A stretch of 64,000 bases of DNA. Source: Escherichia phage pinkbiff. Made by a program: the position numbers and the translations under genes. Each line of letters opens with the position of its first letter. Positions within the stretch are counted from its first letter, which is position 1. This document shows, one piece after another, positions 588 through 54,078 of this stretch. The stretch lies in the sequence record MN850603.1; one strand, written 5' to 3'. A model generated the notes under the pieces. That model was not told the DNA's origin and searched no databases. It saw nothing but the letters and a program-made list of their open reading frames with translations.

Positions 588-800
588 ATGGCTCTTAAAA
601 AGTTACATCCCAGAAGCGGTTATGGTAAGATAATTGACGATACAGACGGCTTTACAGTCTTTACAGTTATCTGTCAAGATGATTCACAGATTGAAAAGGC
701 TCTTGATGATTATCTTAACGATGAACGTGAAAAGGTTAGGGCTACAAACATAGATTCATTGATTGACACTTCACGCAAACGGAAGAAGAAAGATGAATGA
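588..800 (+). CDS. hypothetical small protein
   Basis: ORF track; start immediately after stop of upstream ORF (coupled arrangement); no recognisable motif. Confidence 0.35.
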   Translation: MALKKLHPRSGYGKIIDDTDGFTVFTVICQDDSQIEKALDDYLNDEREKVRATNIDSLIDTSRKRKKKDE

Positions 801-1092
801 GGTTTTTGACCCTTATGCTCCACAAGATGATTGGGAGGCTGATAGAGAGGCTGAAATGGAGAGTTATATTTGTCCAATGGATGTAGACGAAATGAGAGAC
901 TTCGTTGCACATCGTTTTAAGAGAGAGATTAAATCCAGAGGTCTTTCTCAAGAGCAAGTCGCTAAAATTTGTGGTATCTCTCAGGCTCGTGTATCCAACA
1001 TAATCCACCTCACTGGTAACGTCTCCCTTGAGTATATGTTGGAAGTATGCGAAAAATTTGGTGTTAATTTTAATTTAAGGTTGGCAGATTAA
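793..1092 (+). CDS. helix-turn-helix DNA-binding protein (XRE-like)
   Basis: HTH-like segment LSQEQVAKICGISQARVSNI; ORF opens at 763 but ATG at 793 (MNEVF) has purine-rich RBS; start uncertain. Confidence 0.45.
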   Translation: MNEVFDPYAPQDDWEADREAEMESYICPMDVDEMRDFVAHRFKREIKSRGLSQEQVAKICGISQARVSNIIHLTGNVSLEYMLEVCEKFGVNFNLRLAD

Positions 1093-4379: not shown

Positions 4380-6713
4380 TTAAGCAGTCCTCACCCAAGC
4401 CATTAACTTATAGAACTGGTTAGTAACACTAAATGCTGAACCAGAACCTGTACCACCAGTGTTACCACTAACTGTATGACTGTGAGCACCAATACCAACA
4501 CTGTGAGCATGGTTACCAGCAGAAGCGGCAGTACCACTTACAGAGTGGGTGTGAGCACCGTTAGCATCGGTGTAACCCGGCCCTGTACCAATGTAACCAC
4601 CACCACCACCGGAATAGTGCTGTGAGTTCTGACCAATCCACGAAATAGAGTGGCTGTGGTTACCAGCAGATGAAGTAGAACCACTTACAGAGTGAGTGTG
4701 AGCACCAGTCGTGTTAGTGTTTTTTGTTCCGTAGTCAAACGATGAGGTAGTCGCAGAAAAACTGTGCGTGTGTGAAGGTAAGTTACCAACAGATAACGTT
4801 ACAGAATCTGAACCACCAGTTGTAGCAACATCTGAACCATTTGCTGCTGCAATTCTAATAGTCCTACCAACACCATTATTCAGATACGTCCAAGTTAGAC
4901 CAGGCAGTGCTGTATTAGGGTTAACATTACTGTTAAACCACGTCACAATACCTACTGGATAGATTTTGTTAAGGTCTGTAGAGTCACTTACTGCCTGTGC
5001 AATCTTCTGGTCAGTCTCTGCTTTAGTGTATGCACCAATAGCTGAAGGAGTTGGCTTCTGTGCAGTTGTGTACACCATAGCCCAACTTTTCTCAAAGCCA
5101 TCACCATCTCTTGATGTCCTATACCACATACCACCATTCGCCCATTTAAATCTTAGCTGCGCAGACGGTGTAGATGACTCAGACCCCTGATATAACTGAA
5201 GTAAAAGATTTGATGATGTAGCTCCAGTCTTGACATTATACAGCCCTGTCTTAGCATCCCAAGCAATAGCAGCATCATTATCACCTTCACCAGTTTTTCC
5301 TGCATACATGTATCTGGCGTTTGATGCTGAACCGGTATAGTACCTTTTATCTAGGTTAGTCCAGTCGGATGGTTGAACCTGCCCAGTGATTGTTACATTC
5401 TTATTAAACTGGATATAGTTCTCTCTAAGAGACAGTTCAGTACCTAACACCATCTCCCTGATAGTAAAGTTTCCTGAAGCATTAGTACCCATAAACCACT
5501 TTTTAGCACCATCAGAAGTATAACCTTGCAAGAACAAACCACCAGTATCATTTACCCCTTGAAGCCTAATACCCTCTCCATCAGCCTTAATAATCTGACC
5601 TTGAGAAAAAGTATTCTTAGCATTAATTTTTGCAAGAGTGCTTAATGTTGCTGCCGGAATATATCTAGAGTCAATGTTAGTCCAATCTGAAGGTTGAACT
5701 TGACCAGTTACAGTTAGTGTTTTATTGATATTAACACTTGTCCCTACAGTAATCTTGCCACTAGTTTTGTAGTTTTCTAGAGCTACGTTATCACCTTCGT
5801 TACTATTACCAATGTACCATCTGTTGACACCTGTGCTATCAATTGCTTTAATGTACAATGGTTGTGCAGCATTGGCATTCTGTAGCCTAATTGCTTCACC
5901 ATCTTTTTTGAAAACACTCAGTTGTTTGAATGTATTAGTGCCGTTAAAAGTGTTATTACCAGCCAACTGTGCAAATCTTTGATTAGCCAATGTTTGGGTA
6001 AAGTATCTATCATCTAGGTTAGACCAGTCTGAAGGTTTAACCTGACCAGTGATATTTAAATTCTTATTAGAATTAATACCTGCTGAATCCAATGTCAATG
6101 TCGTGCCAGAGGCTTCATTTGATAATCCAAGAACATTTGAAGTATTAAATCCAACATACCATTTATTAGTTCCAGATGGGTCTTGACCTCTAACATAGAG
6201 AGAAGGGCTATCAGTTGCACTTCTTAACAACAGTGCTTGACCATCTGCTACAATTGTCTGCCTAGACTTAAAAGTATTTAGTACTTCTAATCTAGCATAT
6301 CTAGCATCATTCTCAGCATTAGTTCTCATCCCAAGTTCATTAGGGCTTGGCTTATTAAGAGTATGATAAACAGTTGCAGACCTTGAAGCATCTGCAATAG
6401 TTAGTTTAAGACCATTTGCATTAATTTTAAAAGTCTTTAAAACATCCCCCATAGTAATCTCAGAAGAGCCTGTAGGGTCAAAGACTGCCTTACCACCATA
6501 AAGTAACTTAACAATCCCTAAGTCACCCGTCATAGTGCTACCAGCAATCTGGACAAACCTTTCTAGTTTAAAAGATGCTAAGAAGTCTTGATAGGTCATT
6601 CGACGGTCTTCATCACCCAGCATTTCAGGTCTCTTTTTAACCCTGACATGGAGGAGGTCATCTGAACGAATTGTATCAATTGAGTTTAATTCACTCAACT
6701 TGTAATCTGCCAT
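4380..6713 (-). CDS. tail fibre protein (long, repeat-containing)
   Basis: 777 aa; repeated internal modules (TGQVxPSDWxNLDxRY x3); C-terminal His-rich H-x-H-S repeats and ...WVRTA end shared with adjacent fibre gene; position distal to baseplate genes. Confidence 0.7.
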
Positions 6714-27462: not shown

Positions 27463-27612
27463 TGTACGTCAGAGACATACTGTATAAGTCTTCCTATAAA
27501 GTATAACTCTGTAAAAAAGCCCTGTCTAAAAATACTCTTCGGTAGCGAAAGGAAGAATACTTATAGCAGGGCATTATTATTATTTTAATTGAGAGAGAGT
27601 AAAATAACTTGG

Positions 27613-27685
27613 AGAATCCGAAGGGACTTGAACCCTTATAAACCTGTTTTGCAGACAGGCACATAGCCATTTCTGTCACGGATTC
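27613..27685 (-). tRNA. tRNA-Cys (GCA)
   Basis: hand-fold: acceptor gaatccg/cggattc, T-arm aaggg-acttgaa-ccctt, anticodon stem cctgt/acagg with loop reading GCA, discriminator U73. Confidence 0.7.
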
Positions 27686-27692
27686 AAATTGG

Positions 27693-27782
27693 AGGAAGAT
27701 ACCAGACTTGAACTGGTACACCGATTTCTCAGCTACTGGCAGTTTAGCAAACTGCTCCCTTACCTTTTAGGGTTAATCTTCC
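27693..27782 (-). tRNA. tRNA-Ser (GCU), long variable arm
   Basis: acceptor ggaagat/atcttcc, T-arm accag-acttgaa-ctggt, anticodon stem gcagt/actgc, about 90 nt. Confidence 0.65.
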
Positions 27783-27783
27783 A

Positions 27784-28509
27784 TTATTTCTGCAATGCGT
27801 TCTTCATTTCTGGTGTTGCAATAGAATCGATTACACCAGTTTTACAAGCATCATCAAACCAGTCTGGTAAGATACCTGCTAAGAACCCATTGATATTCGT
27901 TTTAAGGTACTCTGCAATAAGGGCAGCTTCTTCTTCAATCATCTGCACAACTTCATCTGCATAAGCTGTAATCTTTGAAATACCTTCATTAATCTTACTA
28001 ACAGCTTGGTTAGCTAAATCAGAAATAGTATCAAGACCTTTATCAATAGCATCCTGTAAGTCACTTAACACATCATTAACACCATCTAGTGTACTGTTAA
28101 TCGTATCCATAGCTTTTTGACCATACTCTGTAGCAACACCCATAATACCACTAAACGGTGTACAGCCAACTTGCTCTCCTGCTGCACCCATAACATTGGA
28201 ATAACCTTTTGCTACCTGCATACGTGATGAGAACTCATCAATGGACTTTTGACCGTAATCTGTCAGCGTCTTAGTAGTTGATGTAGTGCTTGTCAGACTC
28301 GTTGTAAAGCCATTAAGCAGAACTGTTGTAAGTCCAGCAGCAACAAGCTTATCCTTTACTGTAGGGTCTGATACAGAGCTAATAGAGTTTACAAGTGATG
28401 TAGAGGCAGCTACGGTTCCACCGAGAACTGCTGCACCAGTAATAAGGGGATTAGAAAACCCTCTACCGGTTTTTAAGAGATTGAAAATCTCCTTACCTTG
28501 TTCTGTCAT
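27784..28509 (-). CDS. hypothetical protein embedded in tRNA island
   Basis: ORF fits exactly between tRNA-Ser (ends 27782) and tRNA-Phe (starts 28538); ORF track extends to 28581 through the tRNA, so the internal ATG at 28509 (MTEQGKE) is preferred; S/T/G-rich. Confidence 0.35.
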   Translation of the reverse strand: MTEQGKEIFNLLKTGRGFSNPLITGAAVLGGTVAASTSLVNSISSVSDPTVKDKLVAAGLTTVLLNGFTTSLTSTTSTTKTLTDYGQKSIDEFSSRMQVAKGYSNVMGAAGEQVGCTPFSGIMGVATEYGQKAMDTINSTLDGVNDVLSDLQDAIDKGLDTISDLANQAVSKINEGISKITAYADEVVQMIEEEAALIAEYLKTNINGFLAGILPDWFDDACKTGVIDSIATPEMKNALQK

Positions 28510-28537
28510 CTCTTTCATTAAGCACCTTTGAAATTGG

Positions 28538-28611
28538 TAGTCCAGTGGGATTTGAACCCTATTCTCATGTTTTTCAGACACGCGCTTTAACCATATAAGC
28601 TACTTGGACTA
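28538..28611 (-). tRNA. tRNA-Phe (GAA), fold imperfect
   Basis: anticodon stem with loop CUGAAAA, D-arm GCUU/AAGC, T-loop motif present but T-stem and acceptor pairing ambiguous by hand. Confidence 0.45.
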
Positions 28612-28620
28612 TAAATTGGG

Positions 28621-28692
28621 GTGACCTACGGGATTTGAACCCGTATAGACCATGTTCACAGCATGGGTCATTACCATTTATGATAAGGCCAC
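28621..28692 (-). tRNA. tRNA-His (GUG)
   Basis: acceptor gtgacct/aggccac (one G-U), T-arm acggg-atttgaa-cccgt, anticodon stem ccatg/catgg, C73. Confidence 0.7.
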
Positions 28693-28726
28693 ATTTAAGG
28701 CCTCTCGTAAGAACCCTTAGAAGTGG

Positions 28727-28799
28727 CAGCGGCATAAGGATTTGAACCTTAATAGGACAGCTTCAGAGACTGCTGCATTGCCAGTTATGCTATACCGCT
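28727..28799 (-). tRNA. tRNA-Gln (CUG)
   Basis: encoded CCA, T-arm taagg-atttgaa-cctta, anticodon loop CUCUGAA, G73. Confidence 0.65.
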
Positions 28800-28807
28800 A
28801 AATTTGG

Positions 28808-42559: not shown

Positions 42560-44140
42560 AGTAAAATTTACGAAATTTATATTTTTATAAAATTTTATCG
42601 GTTGTCCCAACCTCTGGGTCACCATCATATGTGAATAAAATATCTATCCTTCTTAACAGCCTTCTTAATCTTACTCTCTATGTAGTTATATAGTACTATA
42701 TAGTATCTTAGTAACTATCTAGTGGTCTTAATAGCCCTCTGTATAACCCTTCTAACAAGCCCTCTAACAAGCCTTCTAAACACTCTTCTAACAAGCCTTC
42801 TTAACAACCTATACAATCACCTTAATCATCCATCTACACCCTCTTAGAAGCTCCTATACACCTCTTAATCTCTAGGTTACCTATGTTACCCTCTATAGGT
42901 GTTCACTAGGTATTACTAAGCCTCTATATAGACTGTTTTAACAAACTTAACAGGAATATCTTTACAGACCTTATCTCACAAGGTCTAACACGGTACTAAC
43001 AAGGTATCTTATAAGCCTGTTTCTACCTGTATTTTTAAAATACTGTCTAGGTAATTATTCAGAATTTTAAAATTTTTATAAAATAGAGCTATCAAGTCAT
43101 TTTTTAGGGTCTTTGAAGGAACTGAAAAATATCTGTCTAGGATGTATATCTGCTTGGTAGCCCTTAACAGCTCCCTTACAAGTACTTTGCAGAATTTTAA
43201 AATATCATTAACAGTTTCTTAACAGTTCTCACATCTTCTTAACAACTCTTCAAAGGTCTTAACAGATTCTTAACAGAACTAACAAGGGCTTAACAGTTTT
43301 CTAGGGATTGGTAACAATACCAATTAACAAGTACTGAATAGGCTTTACAGAATCTTAACAGATGACTAACAAGAGCTAACAAGTTAATTTTAAAGAGTTA
43401 TTTTGTTAAGATAATTAACAAGTTCCTAACAAGTGTTTAATCTTTTTAACAAGCTATTAACATGGTCACTACTCTTTTCTTATCGTTCCCTTTCCTTTCT
43501 TAGTGACTTCTTAAACATACCTCTTAAAAGCTCTTAAAAGCTCTTTATAGGCTCTTTTAAGTCCCTCCCTAGTATTTACCCCTCAACTGTATGGATAGCT
43601 CTTTATAGGGCTTTACAGGAGCTTTTAAGGCTATGCCAAAGGTTCTTACAAGGTTTTTACGTGGTCTTAACAGAGATTTAACAAGGTGCTAACAAGAATA
43701 ACTATGTAGGGTTTGTTAAGAAAATGTTAAAAAAATGTTAAGGGGGCTAGCATTTACGTAACTTTTAAGCTACTTCAAAGTAACTTTATAACCCCTATAA
43801 CATGCTTTTTAATAGCTATCAAGGGGTTTGTTTAATCATTCACAAGATACTAGCCAGCCTATAAGCTTTCACCCTTATAAGATTCTTTTAAGGCTCTGGG
43901 AAGCTTTATAAAGGGCTTTTAAGGGTGAGGTAATGCAATCCCTTAAGTTAGGTTAATAAGGCCGTTATAGGGCTTTATAGAGCGTTTAAATGGTTGCCCT
44001 TCCCTTTCGGGTTATGGGCTTATATTTAAGTTGATTTGATAAGAGGTTATAGAGTAGACTATAGAGTTATTGCTTTTTAAGGTCTAGTAAGATTCTGGAA
44101 AGGAAAGGGAAAGGGTTTGTATAAGGATTCGATAGACGTA
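42560..44140. repeat. noncoding region with dense short repeats (TTAACAG / TAACAAG and CTTTATAG / CTTTTAAG families)
   Basis: no ORF of 60 aa or more in any frame across about 1.6 kb; more than 25 copies of (C)TTAACAG or (C)TAACAAG, many spaced 10-20 bp apart in 43200-43460; flanked by convergent terminators. Confidence 0.6.
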
Positions 44141-44142
44141 AA

Positions 44143-44215
44143 AAAGCCCCTATGAGATAGATTCTATCGAATCCATTTTGAGTAGGGGCTGTTCAGGTAT
44201 CTGGGGCTATTTAGC
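44143..44215 (-). terminator. rho-independent terminator closing minus-strand small-gene array
   Basis: minus-strand hairpin AGCCCCTA..TAGGGGCT followed by U6. Confidence 0.5.
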
Positions 44216-44228
44216 CCCGTTGCGTCGA

Positions 44229-44477
44229 TTAGTTGTAACCTTGTTTGCTGTAGTACAGGGAGACAATCAAATCACCCCAGTAATGATAGTGATGCTCATC
44301 GTTTATGGCCTCTTTTACGGCATCTTTCCAGAAGTCATCAATAGGGTTATAGTCTGGGATAACTTGCTTGATAACTGTCTTCACTAAGGAAAAGCATTCA
44401 TCAGTTCCGCCGATATCAAATTTAACGTCCAGAGTATAACAGCCATAAGCATTTACAGTAGCGCGGATAGTTGCCAT
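44229..44477 (-). CDS. hypothetical small protein (cassette-array gene)
   Basis: 82 aa; ATG follows conserved leader with AGGAGA Shine-Dalgarno. Confidence 0.5.
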   Translation of the reverse strand: MATIRATVNAYGCYTLDVKFDIGGTDECFSLVKTVIKQVIPDYNPIDDFWKDAVKEAINDEHHYHYWGDLIVSLYYSKQGYN

Positions 44478-44560
44478 TTTTGAATCTCCTAGTTTAAGGG
44501 TTTTATTTTAGTGGGGAAGTTCATTCCCTCCCCGTTGATTGACAATTTACAGATTTTTGA
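44478..44560 (-). repeat. intergenic cassette, variant A
   Basis: minus-strand order: TTGTCAATCAACG, hairpin GGGGAGGGAA..CTCCCC, then CTAAAATAAAACCCTTAAACTAGGAGATTCAAAA before the ATG. Confidence 0.6.
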
Positions 44561-46572: not shown

Positions 46573-46655
46573 TTTTGAATCTCCTAGTTTAAGGATTGAG
46601 TGGTAAAGCTCTTTATCTGGGGCTTAAGATATCAACTTTTAAGCCCCCTGTAAAG
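46573..46655 (-). repeat. intergenic cassette, variant B
   Basis: same SD/leader but hairpin GGGGCTTAAGATATCAACTTTTAAGCCCC and CTGTAAAGTACTTTAT. Confidence 0.6.
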
Positions 46656-46863: not shown

Positions 46864-46945
46864 TTTTGAATCTCCTAGTTTAAGGGTTTTATTTAGTGGG
46901 GGGCTGGTCATTCCCTCCCCGTTGATGTGTAACTTAATATATATA
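46864..46945 (-). repeat. intergenic cassette, variant A
   Basis: conserved leader plus GGGGGGCTGGTCATTCCCTCCCC hairpin. Confidence 0.6.
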
Positions 46946-47375: not shown

Positions 47376-47460
47376 TTTTGAATCTCCAATTTAGGATTTA
47401 GTGGTAAAGCTCTTTATCTGGGGCTTACTTTATCGAACTATAAGCCCCCTGTAAAGTACT
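47376..47460 (-). repeat. intergenic cassette, variant B
   Basis: GGGGCTTACTTTATCGAACTATAAGCCCC hairpin plus CTGTAAAGTACTTT. Confidence 0.6.
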
Positions 47461-47735: not shown

Positions 47736-47805
47736 TTTGAATCTCCTAGTTTAAGGACTTTGTTTAGTGGGGAGGTCATTACCTCCCGTTGATTAGTAAT
47801 TTACT
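47736..47805 (-). repeat. intergenic cassette, variant A
   Basis: conserved leader plus GGGGAGGTCATTACCTCCC hairpin. Confidence 0.6.
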
Positions 47806-48443: not shown

Positions 48444-48535
48444 TTTAGAATCTCCTAGTTTAAGGGCTTTATTTGATAAATCTCTTTATCTGGGGCTATC
48501 CTACCAGCTTGATAACCCCGTGTAAAGAAATCTAT
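48444..48535 (-). repeat. intergenic cassette, variant B (divergent)
   Basis: conserved SD/leader plus GGGGCTATCCTACCAGCTTGATAACCCC hairpin. Confidence 0.55.
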
Positions 48536-49048: not shown

Positions 49049-49130
49049 TTTTGAATCTCCAGTTTAGGATTAAGTGGTAAAGCTCTTTATCTGGGGCTTA
49101 AGATATCAACTTTTAAGCCCCCTGTAAAGT
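49049..49130 (-). repeat. intergenic cassette, variant B
   Basis: near-identical to copy at 46573-46655. Confidence 0.6.
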
Positions 49131-49133
49131 ACT

Positions 49134-49427
49134 TTATTTGTTAATTTTCAGCTTTGCATAACCTCTCATTGTACGAATGGGGGATGTTAATGCTACGCGT
49201 CTAATGTATGCCTTTTTCGTGTATACATTTGTCTTCCCGATAGTGTTTACACATGTAAAAAGGTTTATCGGTGAATTTTTTAACTTCAAATGTTTATCAA
49301 CCTTTACGCCCCATCTTACAGCGGATTGTTTTCCGTTGTCAACCACTTTCCCGCCTAACTTTTTCGCCATGATGCGAGCGTCATCACGAGTTTTTGCAGG
49401 AATTACAACGTTTTTGATAATAGCCAT
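49134..49427 (-). CDS. hypothetical basic protein (first gene of cassette array)
   Basis: 97 aa; ATG follows variant-A cassette. Confidence 0.5.
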   Translation of the reverse strand: MAIIKNVVIPAKTRDDARIMAKKLGGKVVDNGKQSAVRWGVKVDKHLKLKNSPINLFTCVNTIGKTNVYTKKAYIRRVALTSPIRTMRGYAKLKINK

Positions 49428-49500
49428 TTTTGAATCTCCTAGTTTAAGGGTTTTTATTTAGTGGGGAAGTCATTTCCTCCCCGTTGATGCAAATACTAGA
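49428..49500 (-). repeat. intergenic cassette, variant A
   Basis: conserved leader plus GGGGAAGTCATTTCCTCCCC hairpin. Confidence 0.6.
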
Positions 49501-49683
49501 TAACCCCGTTCGAATAGTCAAGAAAAATTTTAAAAATATTTTTGGCAAAATTGTAATGAAACGGGTGCGCGCGACTACCACAAAACAGAGCTACAATCAA
49601 GAATTATTTTTCAATCCGCTACAAATTTTTCTGTTGACTTTTCTTTTCGGATGTGGTAGCCTTGTGAGAAATGGCGACATCCC

Positions 49684-49880
49684 TACCTGCACCCACCTAC
49701 CTGCACAATTCTAAAATGATTTTTCTTGCCCGACCTGATTTTTCTCTGCACGTTTTGAAAATGAAAAAGCTCTTTGGAGATTACCTGCACAGTTTGAAAA
49801 TGAATTTTCTCTTTGGAGTTCAAAATTCTCTCTACAGATTTCTCTATAGAAATATACCTGCACAATTCTGAAATGAAAAA
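49684..49880. repeat. direct repeats (CCTGCACA-N-TT-N-TGAAAATGA, at least 4 copies) upstream of cassette array
   Basis: copies near 49699, 49746, 49783 and 49855, plus tandem CCTACCTGCAC x2 at 49684-49706 and CTCTTTGGAG x2. Confidence 0.55.
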
Positions 49881-49949
49881 GCCCTCCTTACCTGAAAAAT
49901 TTACCAGATAAGAAAGGCTTAGTCTATTGTGAGTATTTTACAGAGTTTC

Positions 49950-50735
49950 TTAGTTCTTTGCGTCTAAGAAGGTAAGCTCTGGTGAAGAGAAGATTAACTC
50001 GATATCCTCATCAGTTCTCGCATAGATATAAGTATCTGCATCACTGCCAAATGTTACTGCAATCCTGTGATTGCTCTTCGACAGGTGGGTAACTAGAGCG
50101 TTACTTAGAGACATCTTTTCAACCGGAGGGTTACTTTGATGTATCTTACCTTTTCTTCGTCTGAAAAGGGTAACTGCATTATCCGTGAACACTGCTACAC
50201 CTGCAAAGTATTCTGGTTCACAGTAGTTCTTCCAACCTGAGAGTAACTTGTGGTACATCTCTCCTTCATAGACATACAGATAAACATCTACACTCTTCAT
50301 GACCTGATTGATGATAACTGTGACAGCTTGAGGGTCGAGTCCACCGATACCTGCACCAATCATAGGTAGACCGACTTTCTTCAACTGGTTAACTTCACAG
50401 TATCTGTTAAGCTGTTTCAAAGATGACTCTAAAGCACTGTATCGTGCATCTTTACCAGTCTTAAGCTGAGTGTAAAGGTTAGCTATACGGCCTTGTTTTA
50501 AACGTGCTACAGAGGAATTACCCAGTAAATTTTCACAGGGTTTGTGTCCTATACCACCTGCATATAGATAAACTTCTGTATCGGTCTCATATGCTTTTGG
50601 GTAAAGTTTAGAAATCTTGTCAGCGATACCTGCACCCATTAAATTCATACAGTTGCAACCGTGACCGATGATGTCAAACTTACCTTTATCAAATGCGGAA
50701 AAGATATCACCGTTGATAATTTTTACAATACCCAT
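49950..50735 (-). CDS. macro-domain protein (TARG1/OARD1/DarG-like ADP-ribose hydrolase fold) with unknown C-terminal domain
   Basis: 261 aa; N-terminal GDIFSAFDKGKFDIIGHGCNCMNLMGAGIADKISKLYP matches the GDLF..HC....MGAGIA signature of TARG1/DarG-type macrodomains. Confidence 0.55.
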   Translation of the reverse strand: MGIVKIINGDIFSAFDKGKFDIIGHGCNCMNLMGAGIADKISKLYPKAYETDTEVYLYAGGIGHKPCENLLGNSSVARLKQGRIANLYTQLKTGKDARYSALESSLKQLNRYCEVNQLKKVGLPMIGAGIGGLDPQAVTVIINQVMKSVDVYLYVYEGEMYHKLLSGWKNYCEPEYFAGVAVFTDNAVTLFRRRKGKIHQSNPPVEKMSLSNALVTHLSKSNHRIAVTFGSDADTYIYARTDEDIELIFSSPELTFLDAKN

Positions 50736-53986: not shown

Positions 53987-54045
53987 TGGTTCTCCTGTTT
54001 AGTTTATCGTGACAACAATTATACAGCACTCTGCACAAAATACAA

Positions 54046-54078
54046 ATAAAAAAGGCCGCCGAAGCAGCCTTTTAAGAA
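54046..54078 (-). terminator. rho-independent terminator after rIIB-like gene
   Basis: GC-rich hairpin (GGCTGC ttcg GCGGCC) followed by U-run on minus strand. Confidence 0.45.

Follow-up and report, generated by a model that had tools for sequence, protein, structure and literature searches.

What are the direct repeats that lie between the macro-domain gene and the small-gene array of Felix O1-like phages? We addressed this question in a 64,000-nt stretch of the genome of Escherichia phage pinkbiff (MN850603.1; hereafter, the window). The window belongs to the genus Felixounavirus, and the 2.5 kb around the repeat array match 251 phage records at ~90–93% identity, almost all of them from Felix O1-like myoviruses infecting Escherichia, Salmonella, Shigella, and Citrobacter. 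Felix O1 and related phages are classics of phage typing and find wide use in biocontrol and therapy. We came across no account of the array in the searchable literature. The Felix O1 genome paper includes terminator t13 and repeats other than this array (24 bp or longer) and describes no replication origin, and its authors state that the temporal regulation of transcription is not known (PMC3185647).

Because every gene from ~44.5 kb to 63.6 kb is carried by the minus strand, we describe the array on that strand. It lies within a 522-bp gene-free gap (49428–49949) that separates the macro-domain gene—the invariable upstream neighbor of the array, as judged by synteny across relatives—from the first small-gene-array gene (Table 1). 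Read 5′ to 3′, the gap contains a terminator, the four repeat units R1, R2, R3, and R4, a poorly conserved stretch, an AT-rich block with the candidate promoter P1, the promoter P2, a leader hairpin, the ribosome-binding site, and the ATG. The array is thus located upstream of the minus-strand small genes, as an earlier note on this DNA had proposed.

Table 1 Coordinates of the repeat units and of the features that surround them (window numbering).
Feature	Position	Strand	Sequence or remark
Macro-domain (‘phosphatase’) gene	49950–50735	−	Pfam PF01661, 32.6 bits (cut-off 22); PHROG 335
Intrinsic terminator of the macro-domain gene	49869–49920	−	17-pair hairpin (49920→49879), then tail TTTCATTTCA; from a terminator scan
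Unit R1, core	49859–49881	−	CTTTT TCATTT CAGAATT GTGCA; matrix 39.5 bits
Unit R2, core	49786–49808	−	AAAAT TCATTT TCAAACT GTGCA; matrix 34.8 bits
Unit R3, core	49747–49769	−	CTTTT TCATTT TCAAAAC GTGCA; matrix 36.0 bits
Unit R4, core	49702–49724	−	AAAAA TCATTT TAGAATT GTGCA; matrix 37.6 bits
Spacer motif CTCCAAAGAG, present twice	49770–49818	−	Plus-strand CTCTTTGGAG at 49770–49779 and 49809–49818; GC-richer first block ahead of R3 and R2
Partial extra copy of the unit 3′ end	49682–49692	−	GTGCAGGTAGG; 14 bp after R4's own; accounts for the doubled CCTACCTGCAC
Candidate weak promoter P1	49572–49600	−	TTGATT-17-TAGTCG; read from the sequence
Sigma-70-type promoter P2, heading the small-gene array	49493–49521	−	TTGACT-17-TAGTAT
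5′-leader hairpin	49463–49482	−	GGGGAGGAAATGACTTCCCC; precedes ribosome-binding site and start codon (ATG, 49427) of the first array gene
First small-gene-array gene	49134–49427	−	ATG at 49427
Weak solitary look-alike of the unit	54032–54054	−	TTTTT TTATTT GTATTTT GTGCA; regex match; <12 bits with the matrix

Both borders of the gap carry recognizable transcription signals. The T-tract of the macro-domain terminator is at the same time the left half of R1. The terminator hairpin is retained in seven relatives, in which changes affect one side of a pair only, and its sequence is identical to that of terminator t13 in Table 2 of the Felix O1 paper (PMC3185647). On the small-gene side, the TTGAC and TA..AT elements of P2 are invariant over four genera in a nine-genome alignment, and the equivalent site carries a promoter annotation in phage ASO1A. 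The AT-rich block ahead of P1 is strongly conserved as well (25 distinct sequences); that P1 itself acts as a promoter we only infer from its sequence, its –10 box being poor.

The array consists of four head-to-tail copies of the pattern W5-TCATTT-N7-GTGCA (49702–49881). The earlier note had counted at least four copies and two doubled motifs in this region, and all of these are present: plus-strand CTGCAC starts at 49701, 49746, 49785, and 49858, CCTACCTGCAC at 49682 and 49696, and CTCTTTGGAG at 49770 and 49809. Three copies fit the 22-nt consensus TACCTGCACARTTYTRAAATGA with zero to one mismatch, and none of 100 dinucleotide-preserving shuffles gave any match to it. A search with the 19-nt CTGCACNNTTNNRAAATGA, allowing up to two mismatches, returned exactly the four array copies—all of them exact—compared to 0.6 matches expected, and no shuffle reached four. 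The copy at 49746 deviates from the earlier consensus at its GC end (TCTGCACG vs CCTGCACA). With start-to-start spacings of 45, 39, and 73 bp, the copies are interspersed rather than tandem, and Tandem Repeats Finder (minimum score 30) reported no contiguous satellite at the repeats.

Each unit has a 23-nt core composed of five A/T bases, TCATTT, a 7-nt linker (loose consensus YNRAWNY), and GTGCA, with the centers of the conserved blocks ~12 bp apart. In most units, a GC-richer block (CTCCAAAGAG or GGTCGGGCAAG) lies 5′ of this core and the true period is, therefore, ~38 bp. The partial GTGCAGGTAGG duplication behind R4 occurs only in the window among the aligned genomes and falls in a poorly conserved stretch that is C-rich in most relatives. 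There, a C-rich, G-poor tract (CCCCTCTCCCCCTCTTACTCCCCCTCTCCCC) is found 3′ of the array (at ~4640–4700 in ASO1A, and just downstream of unit 4 also in TP1, SUSP1/2, Mijalis, and Sf17); its complement, with at least four G-runs, could fold into a G-quadruplex, and an RNA copy of the tract would look like a Rho-loading site. In the window, this tract has been lost and the partial duplication takes its place. As a separate observation, the 9-mer GTGCAGGTA of the units also occurs twice in the macro-domain gene (minus strand, 50348–50356 and 50627–50635), where it encodes two Gly-Ala-Gly-Ile motifs. Its six copies in the 64-kb window all fall within 1 kb and on one strand; those inside the gene are probably a coincidence of codon choice.

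How widely is the array distributed, and how well is it kept? The intergenic region matches 288 phage records, 208 of which cover at least 80% of it, and Erwinia phages match its repeat part alone. We compared this region in nine genomes, drawn from four genera (Felixounavirus, Suspvirus, Mooglevirus, and Kolesnikvirus), and found the array directly 3′ of the macro-domain gene in nine of nine. The units are spaced by 73–75/39–41/45 bp in Felixounavirus, Suspvirus, and Mooglevirus, and by 37/37/39 bp in Kolesnikvirus, which has a decayed extra unit on the terminator tail. Invariant columns of the nine-genome alignment cluster in TTTTTCATTT, in TGTGCA, and in the –35 and –10 boxes of P2, and the same pattern recurs in 25 distinct sequences from the first three genera. 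These genera also conserve the CTCCAAAGAG spacer, in the place of which Kolesnikvirus has the related GGTCTGGCAAG/GGGACTGGCAAC. Between the window and the Kolesnikvirus-type Erwinia phage M7, core identity averages 75%, as compared to 27% for random 23-mers of both intergenic regions. The units can moreover be matched one to one—R2 to u1, R3 to u2 (both CGTGCA), and R4 to u3, with 34 of 41 positions identical over the whole period of the last pair—arguing that the array has been maintained rather than regenerated.

A scan of IMG/VR for two adjacent units returned ~30 Ounavirinae contigs plus one 88-kb metagenomic contig (L041); the other matches outside the subfamily all came from coding Ser/Ala repeats. 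By blastn, L041 shows no similarity to the window, yet it carries five units (AAAAWTCATTTYAAAAACGTGCATAGG) directly 3′ of a 148-residue macro-only gene. Its layout, shared by L062, comprises the macro gene, the units, and then small genes with repeated regulatory modules. Across lineages, the number of units varies from three to five, with three in the Felixounavirus lineage VpaE1_ev035. Thus, the array is old, each of its units has been maintained, and its copy number can change to some extent; it is among the most conserved non-coding sequences in the region examined.

This conservation bears on the suspicion that the units are functionless relics, that is, duplicated terminator-tail/promoter modules deposited as cassettes came and went at the border of the variable region. 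Terminator tails of the form TTTTT(C/T)ATTT do recur in this phage, a solitary look-alike of the unit follows terminator t2 (see below), the neighboring small-gene array is full of repeated regulatory modules, and the unit count is variable. However, neutral DNA would not be expected to hold the observed core identity, unit correspondence, and spacing where the identity of the surrounding non-coding DNA is at background, nor to survive in a phage that lacks detectable DNA similarity, such as L041. We regard an origin as mere debris as distinctly improbable.

We then asked whether the unit occurs elsewhere. A position-weight matrix built from 27 distinct units was used to scan the window and the complete genomes of Felixounavirus LNA6 (88 kb) and Kolesnikvirus Ep030 (83 kb). 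Each contained only the four array sites at 23–42 bits (35–40 in the window), the next best site over the window, LNA6, and Ep030 scoring 17.5 bits. The solitary look-alike (Table 1) sits on the tail of the terminator that corresponds to Felix O1 t2 (GGCTGCTTCGGCGGCC TTTTTTATTTGTATTTTGTGCAGAG), directly 5′ of a TGTATAAT promoter. A regex match of this kind lies 4.2–4.9 kb upstream of the array in most Felixounavirus-type loci, and ~0.1 match would be expected by chance in the window, as estimated from base composition. The look-alike probably stands outside the array and may be a chance match or a relic. With regard to the hosts, a motif scan of 185,579 species genomes found two adjacent units in no Enterobacterales chromosome, so the array is not obviously a host operator. 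Similarly, an informal comparison of the conserved unit positions with the consensus sites of CRP, IHF, Fis, Fur, PhoB, OmpR, NtrC, MarA/SoxS/Rob, sigma-54, sigma-E, sigma-32, Tus, and XerCD gave no fit.

Confinement to a single locus also speaks to the idea that the units are four tandem promoters, used weakly by host sigma-70 or by a phage-modified polymerase, that fire into the small-gene array. Its best case is unit 1: R1 is followed by TATATT, which creates a sigma-70-like site (TTTTCA-17-TATATT; 9/12), and relatives retain a –10-like hexamer at this unit despite sequence change (TAGAGT, TATAGT, TGCAAT, TGAAAT). In addition, by our own comparison, W5-TCATTTT-N-AAA agrees at 13 of 17 positions with the published UP-element consensus. 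Yet, units 2–4 have no –10-like hexamer at any fixed distance; when we required –35 and –10 hexamers separated by 16–18 bp, the –10 box having A as its second and T as its sixth base, unit 1 alone of the four passed, and unit 1 of Kolesnikvirus lacks a usable –10. The best-conserved bases—the C of TCATTT, and GTGCA—do not belong to a promoter consensus either. Nor did a search for extra copies near gene starts return any in the window and the two complete genomes; the motif does not precede many genes in the window, LNA6, or Ep030, as a phage-specific promoter would, and the lack of a further genomic copy counts against a genome-wide promoter class. Both the T7 early promoters A1–A3 and the promoter-in-hairpin modules of T4-like phages resemble the array in being repeated regulatory sequence that heads early variable genes, and the neighboring array genes do carry hairpin-embedded TTTACA-17-TAnnnT promoters. 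Unlike these, the four units have no –10 (unit 1 possibly excepted), form no hairpin, and are found nowhere else in the genome. Tandem promoters are, in our estimate, quite unlikely. Of the two interpretations offered in the earlier note, iterated sites for a regulator hold up—the array is single-locus, asymmetric, deeply conserved, and placed between terminator and promoter—while repeated phage-polymerase promoters do not.

The array might also act as RNA, in the form of a structured leader or small RNA, or be part of a plus-strand gene for a repeat peptide. Indeed, in every genome plus-strand ORFs of 51–130 codons span the array, some of them annotated by depositors; such open frames exist because two of the three unit frames lack stop codons. 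The units, however, are in different frames between genera and their spacing differs by 2 bp (39 vs 41, 73 vs 75), and since these shifts are not multiples of three, no conserved protein is encoded. As for RNA, none of the 39 pairs predicted in the consensus fold showed a compensatory change and only the terminator hairpin was supported, the plus strand folds no better than its shuffles (z = +0.69), and the best Rfam matches scored 18–23 bits against gathering scores of 47–211. Together, this makes an RNA or peptide function scarcely credible.

The genomes show directly that the repeats exist, that they occur at one place only, that they are conserved, and where they lie. From this we infer—tentatively, with a confidence that falls a little short of even—that the array is a single-locus set of iteron-like binding sites for a protein, probably phage-encoded, that would control transcription at this boundary. 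An asymmetric two-part core, head-to-tail copies, a single locus, and strong purifying selection on each copy are what is expected of a protein-binding array, and because the array follows the final terminator of a conserved operon and precedes the small-gene promoters, control of transcription at the boundary is the most economical reading. A direct-repeat array of this sort is a familiar kind of element, not a new one. The window copy would represent the Felixounavirus form of an ancient, subfamily-wide cis-acting DNA element: three to five head-to-tail periods of ~38 bp, each with a GC-richer block (CTCCAAAGAG or GGTCGGGCAAG) and a 23-nt core, occurring once per genome, placed on and after the macro-domain terminator and ~100–180 bp upstream of host-type promoters for the variable small early genes. 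Each asymmetric core would be bound by one copy of a sequence-specific DNA-binding protein—again, probably encoded by the phage—that may have two reading heads about one helical turn apart. Once loaded, the array may block or insulate against read-through from the upstream operon or, alternatively, turn the downstream early promoters on or off during infection.

Several observations argue against such boundary control. At 100–300 bp, the units are remote from the promoters by the standards of classical repression or activation; their spacing of 37–45 bp is out of helical phase; and the left half of the unit resembles the ordinary terminator tail of these phages, TTTTT(C/T)ATTT. Moreover, RT-PCR timing in Felix O1 was mixed on both sides of the array, without a clean temporal boundary (PMC3185647, Table 3). 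Operator- or centromere-like arrays of direct repeats to which small regulators bind cooperatively (e.g. the heptads of omega proteins, ParR/parC) likewise place multiple head-to-tail sites upstream of promoters and vary in copy number among relatives while the array persists. They differ in that the phage units are much longer, lie at the said distance from the promoters, and have no linked gene for a small regulator.

Which protein could recognize the units? The bases that follow GTGCA are GGTA in most Felix-group units, whereas Kolesnikvirus and L041 have TAGR or TAAG, and such a lineage-wide change is better explained by a binder that coevolves with the phage than by an invariant host factor. 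Pfam and PHROG searches revealed no DNA-binding domain in ten neighboring proteins. The only predicted regulator in the window is an XRE-type helix-turn-helix protein (…LSQEQVAKICGISQARVSNII…; 763–1092, plus strand). By position, it matches the sole protein that the annotation of the relative vB_EcoM_H12 calls a ‘transcriptional regulator’. LNA6 has an identical copy, and none is detectable in Ep030. We rejected this protein as the binder, as it is missing from Kolesnikvirus, which still has the array.

A protein-binding array could serve purposes other than transcription. In a wider formulation, the array would be a so far unmapped replication origin or another essential cis site (e.g. a DNA-entry pause) of all Ounavirinae, recognized by an uncharacterized phage protein that co-evolves with it; we hold this to be possible, if doubtful. 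Its most concrete version is a set of origin iterons, in which an initiator binds the four repeats and opens AT-rich DNA nearby, possibly helped by transcription from the adjacent promoters. Virulent phages can have iteron origins, as exemplified by T4 oriE and SPP1 oriL. An origin is the main rival. The form of the repeats fits it; the findings on spacing, initiator, DnaA boxes, and duplex stability do not. Concerning form, four to five asymmetric, two-part direct repeats of ~23 nt occur once per genome in one of the longest gene-free stretches, with AT-rich tracts and promoters within 200 bp, and the four 23-nt cores agree with the usual description of iterons as at least three direct repeats of ~17–23 bp at a single locus. 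The array thereby resembles the iterons of the RepE/RepA/pi type, lambda O, SPP1 G38P, and T4 oriE: several asymmetric ~20-bp direct repeats, two blocks about one helical turn apart, one non-coding locus per genome, and AT-rich DNA close by. In contrast to these systems, it has no adjacent or recognizable initiator gene, no clear unwinding element and, in this phage, no DnaA boxes, and its spacing is 37–75 bp instead of an in-phase ~22 bp.

Domain searches of the ten neighboring proteins found no Rep-type initiator beside the array, and none is annotated in vB_EcoM_H12, a Pharokka-annotated genome. The distances of 39, 45, and 73 bp (37/37/39 in Kolesnikvirus) contrast with the ~22-bp spacing of in-phase iterons and are not multiples of ~10.5–11 bp. 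DnaA boxes divide the genera: every Kolesnikvirus unit holds a box with one mismatch (CTATGCACA or TTATGCACG), and in Erwinia phage M7 four of four units match TTWTNCACA with at most one mismatch, but none of the four window units does (ACCTGCACA has three mismatches). We therefore dismissed a DnaA-box cluster in this phage, since it fits the Kolesnikvirus version alone. The intergenic region is also not among the least stable duplex stretches of the window, which are located at 42.5–43.4 kb; its best 40-bp stretch, the upstream AT-rich part of P2, ranks within the top 0.5% of least stable window positions. Finally, the array lies inside a long one-directional transcription unit rather than at a point of divergence. 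GC skew tracks gene direction and was not informative. In view of these findings, we consider a replication origin unlikely.

The remaining possibility connects the array to the genome ends. As a terminus or packaging site, the array was ruled out, given that the records of terminal-repeat phages begin ~6 kb away and it is not at the physical ends. Felix O1-like phages have short direct terminal repeats of ~0.6 kb, as established for UAB_Phi87 by Bal31 digestion and run-off sequencing (PMC4837284), and PhageTerm reported a 613-bp terminal repeat for Ro111lw (PMC6454146). The Ro111lw record starts at what corresponds to window position ~43747 and runs downward. The record of vB_EcoM_H12, for which direct terminal repeats were likewise reported by PhageTerm, starts with the same gene layout. 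These record starts place the inferred right end ~6–7 kb from the array and make ~43135–43747 the probable position of the ~0.6-kb direct terminal repeat. All genes between the array and this end point towards it.

Near the inferred end, the window contains a gene-free stretch of ~1.7 kb (42600–44250) with convergent transcription and the least stable duplex DNA of the window, featuring short repeats of the types CTTGTTAR/CTGTTAAG, TTAACA at an 11-bp period, and TATAGAG-like. The idea of a terminus arose from a few database records whose ends lie close to the array. The Andreotti record (MN850610; 83.4 kb, shorter than its relatives) starts inside the array, with a 22-bp ‘repeat_region’ at the start, and the records of the Erwinia phages BoyaciRG1 (OR125561) and phi63_307 each start or stop in its vicinity. 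The two ends of BoyaciRG1 are identical over 1232 bp and interrupt genes, and the phi63_307 record stops within the macro-domain gene, which makes both look arbitrary. The ends of the Andreotti and BoyaciRG1 records look like assembly artefacts, not true ends.

The location of the array has a parallel in T5, whose proposed injection stop signal is a conserved cluster of non-coding repeats with DnaA boxes beside poorly conserved small genes (Davison, bioRxiv 10.1101/866236). By analogy, the array might be a site at which DNA entry pauses or the DNA is anchored to the membrane, forming the inner border of the DNA that enters first. Consistent with this, the inferred right end is ~6–7 kb away, and the array sits immediately beyond the promoters from which small early genes are read in the direction of that end; as in T5, conserved non-coding repeats border poorly conserved small early genes near one end, and the Kolesnikvirus units are near-consensus DnaA boxes. 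On the other hand, there is no report of two-step DNA transfer in these phages, and the array seems to lie at no constant distance from the end, this distance being ~15.5 kb in Erwinia phage Fifi318 if the start of its record is the true end. The T5 signal itself is built of inverted repeats and palindromes, has paired DnaA boxes, and forms part of a terminal repeat of 10 kb, whereas the array has direct repeats only, lies outside the ~0.6-kb terminal repeat, and consists, in the window, of poor DnaA boxes. A role in DNA entry is, overall, very improbable.

High conservation and occurrence once per genome (in the two genomes scanned) make the array a concrete experimental handle: a well-defined, testable cis element of putative function in an important phage group. 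It is also the constant inner limit of the variable small-gene region, a point of relevance to the engineering of these phages.

This variable region harbors repeated modules of its own. Promoter-like TTTACA-17-TAnnnT sites inside a hairpin (GGGGCTTAA...TTAAGCCCC) precede several small array genes (minus strand; 49100–49128, 48498–48526, 47427–47455, and 46626–46654); they are the counterparts of the 57-bp repeats described in Felix O1 and look similar to the promoter stem-loops in variable regions of T4-like phages. A second module, CAACGGGGAGGnAATGAC..CCCCACTAAA (the leader hairpin) followed by CCTTAAACTAGGAGATTCAAAAATG, is found 5′ of several array genes (minus strand; 49463–49482, ~47760–47785, ~46905–46930, and ~44520–44545), and its recurrence means that unrelated small genes have regulatory and initiation sequence in common at their 5′ ends. 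Elsewhere in the window, the minus strand carries a cluster of 26 tRNA genes (27610–32782), typical of Felix O1-like phages.
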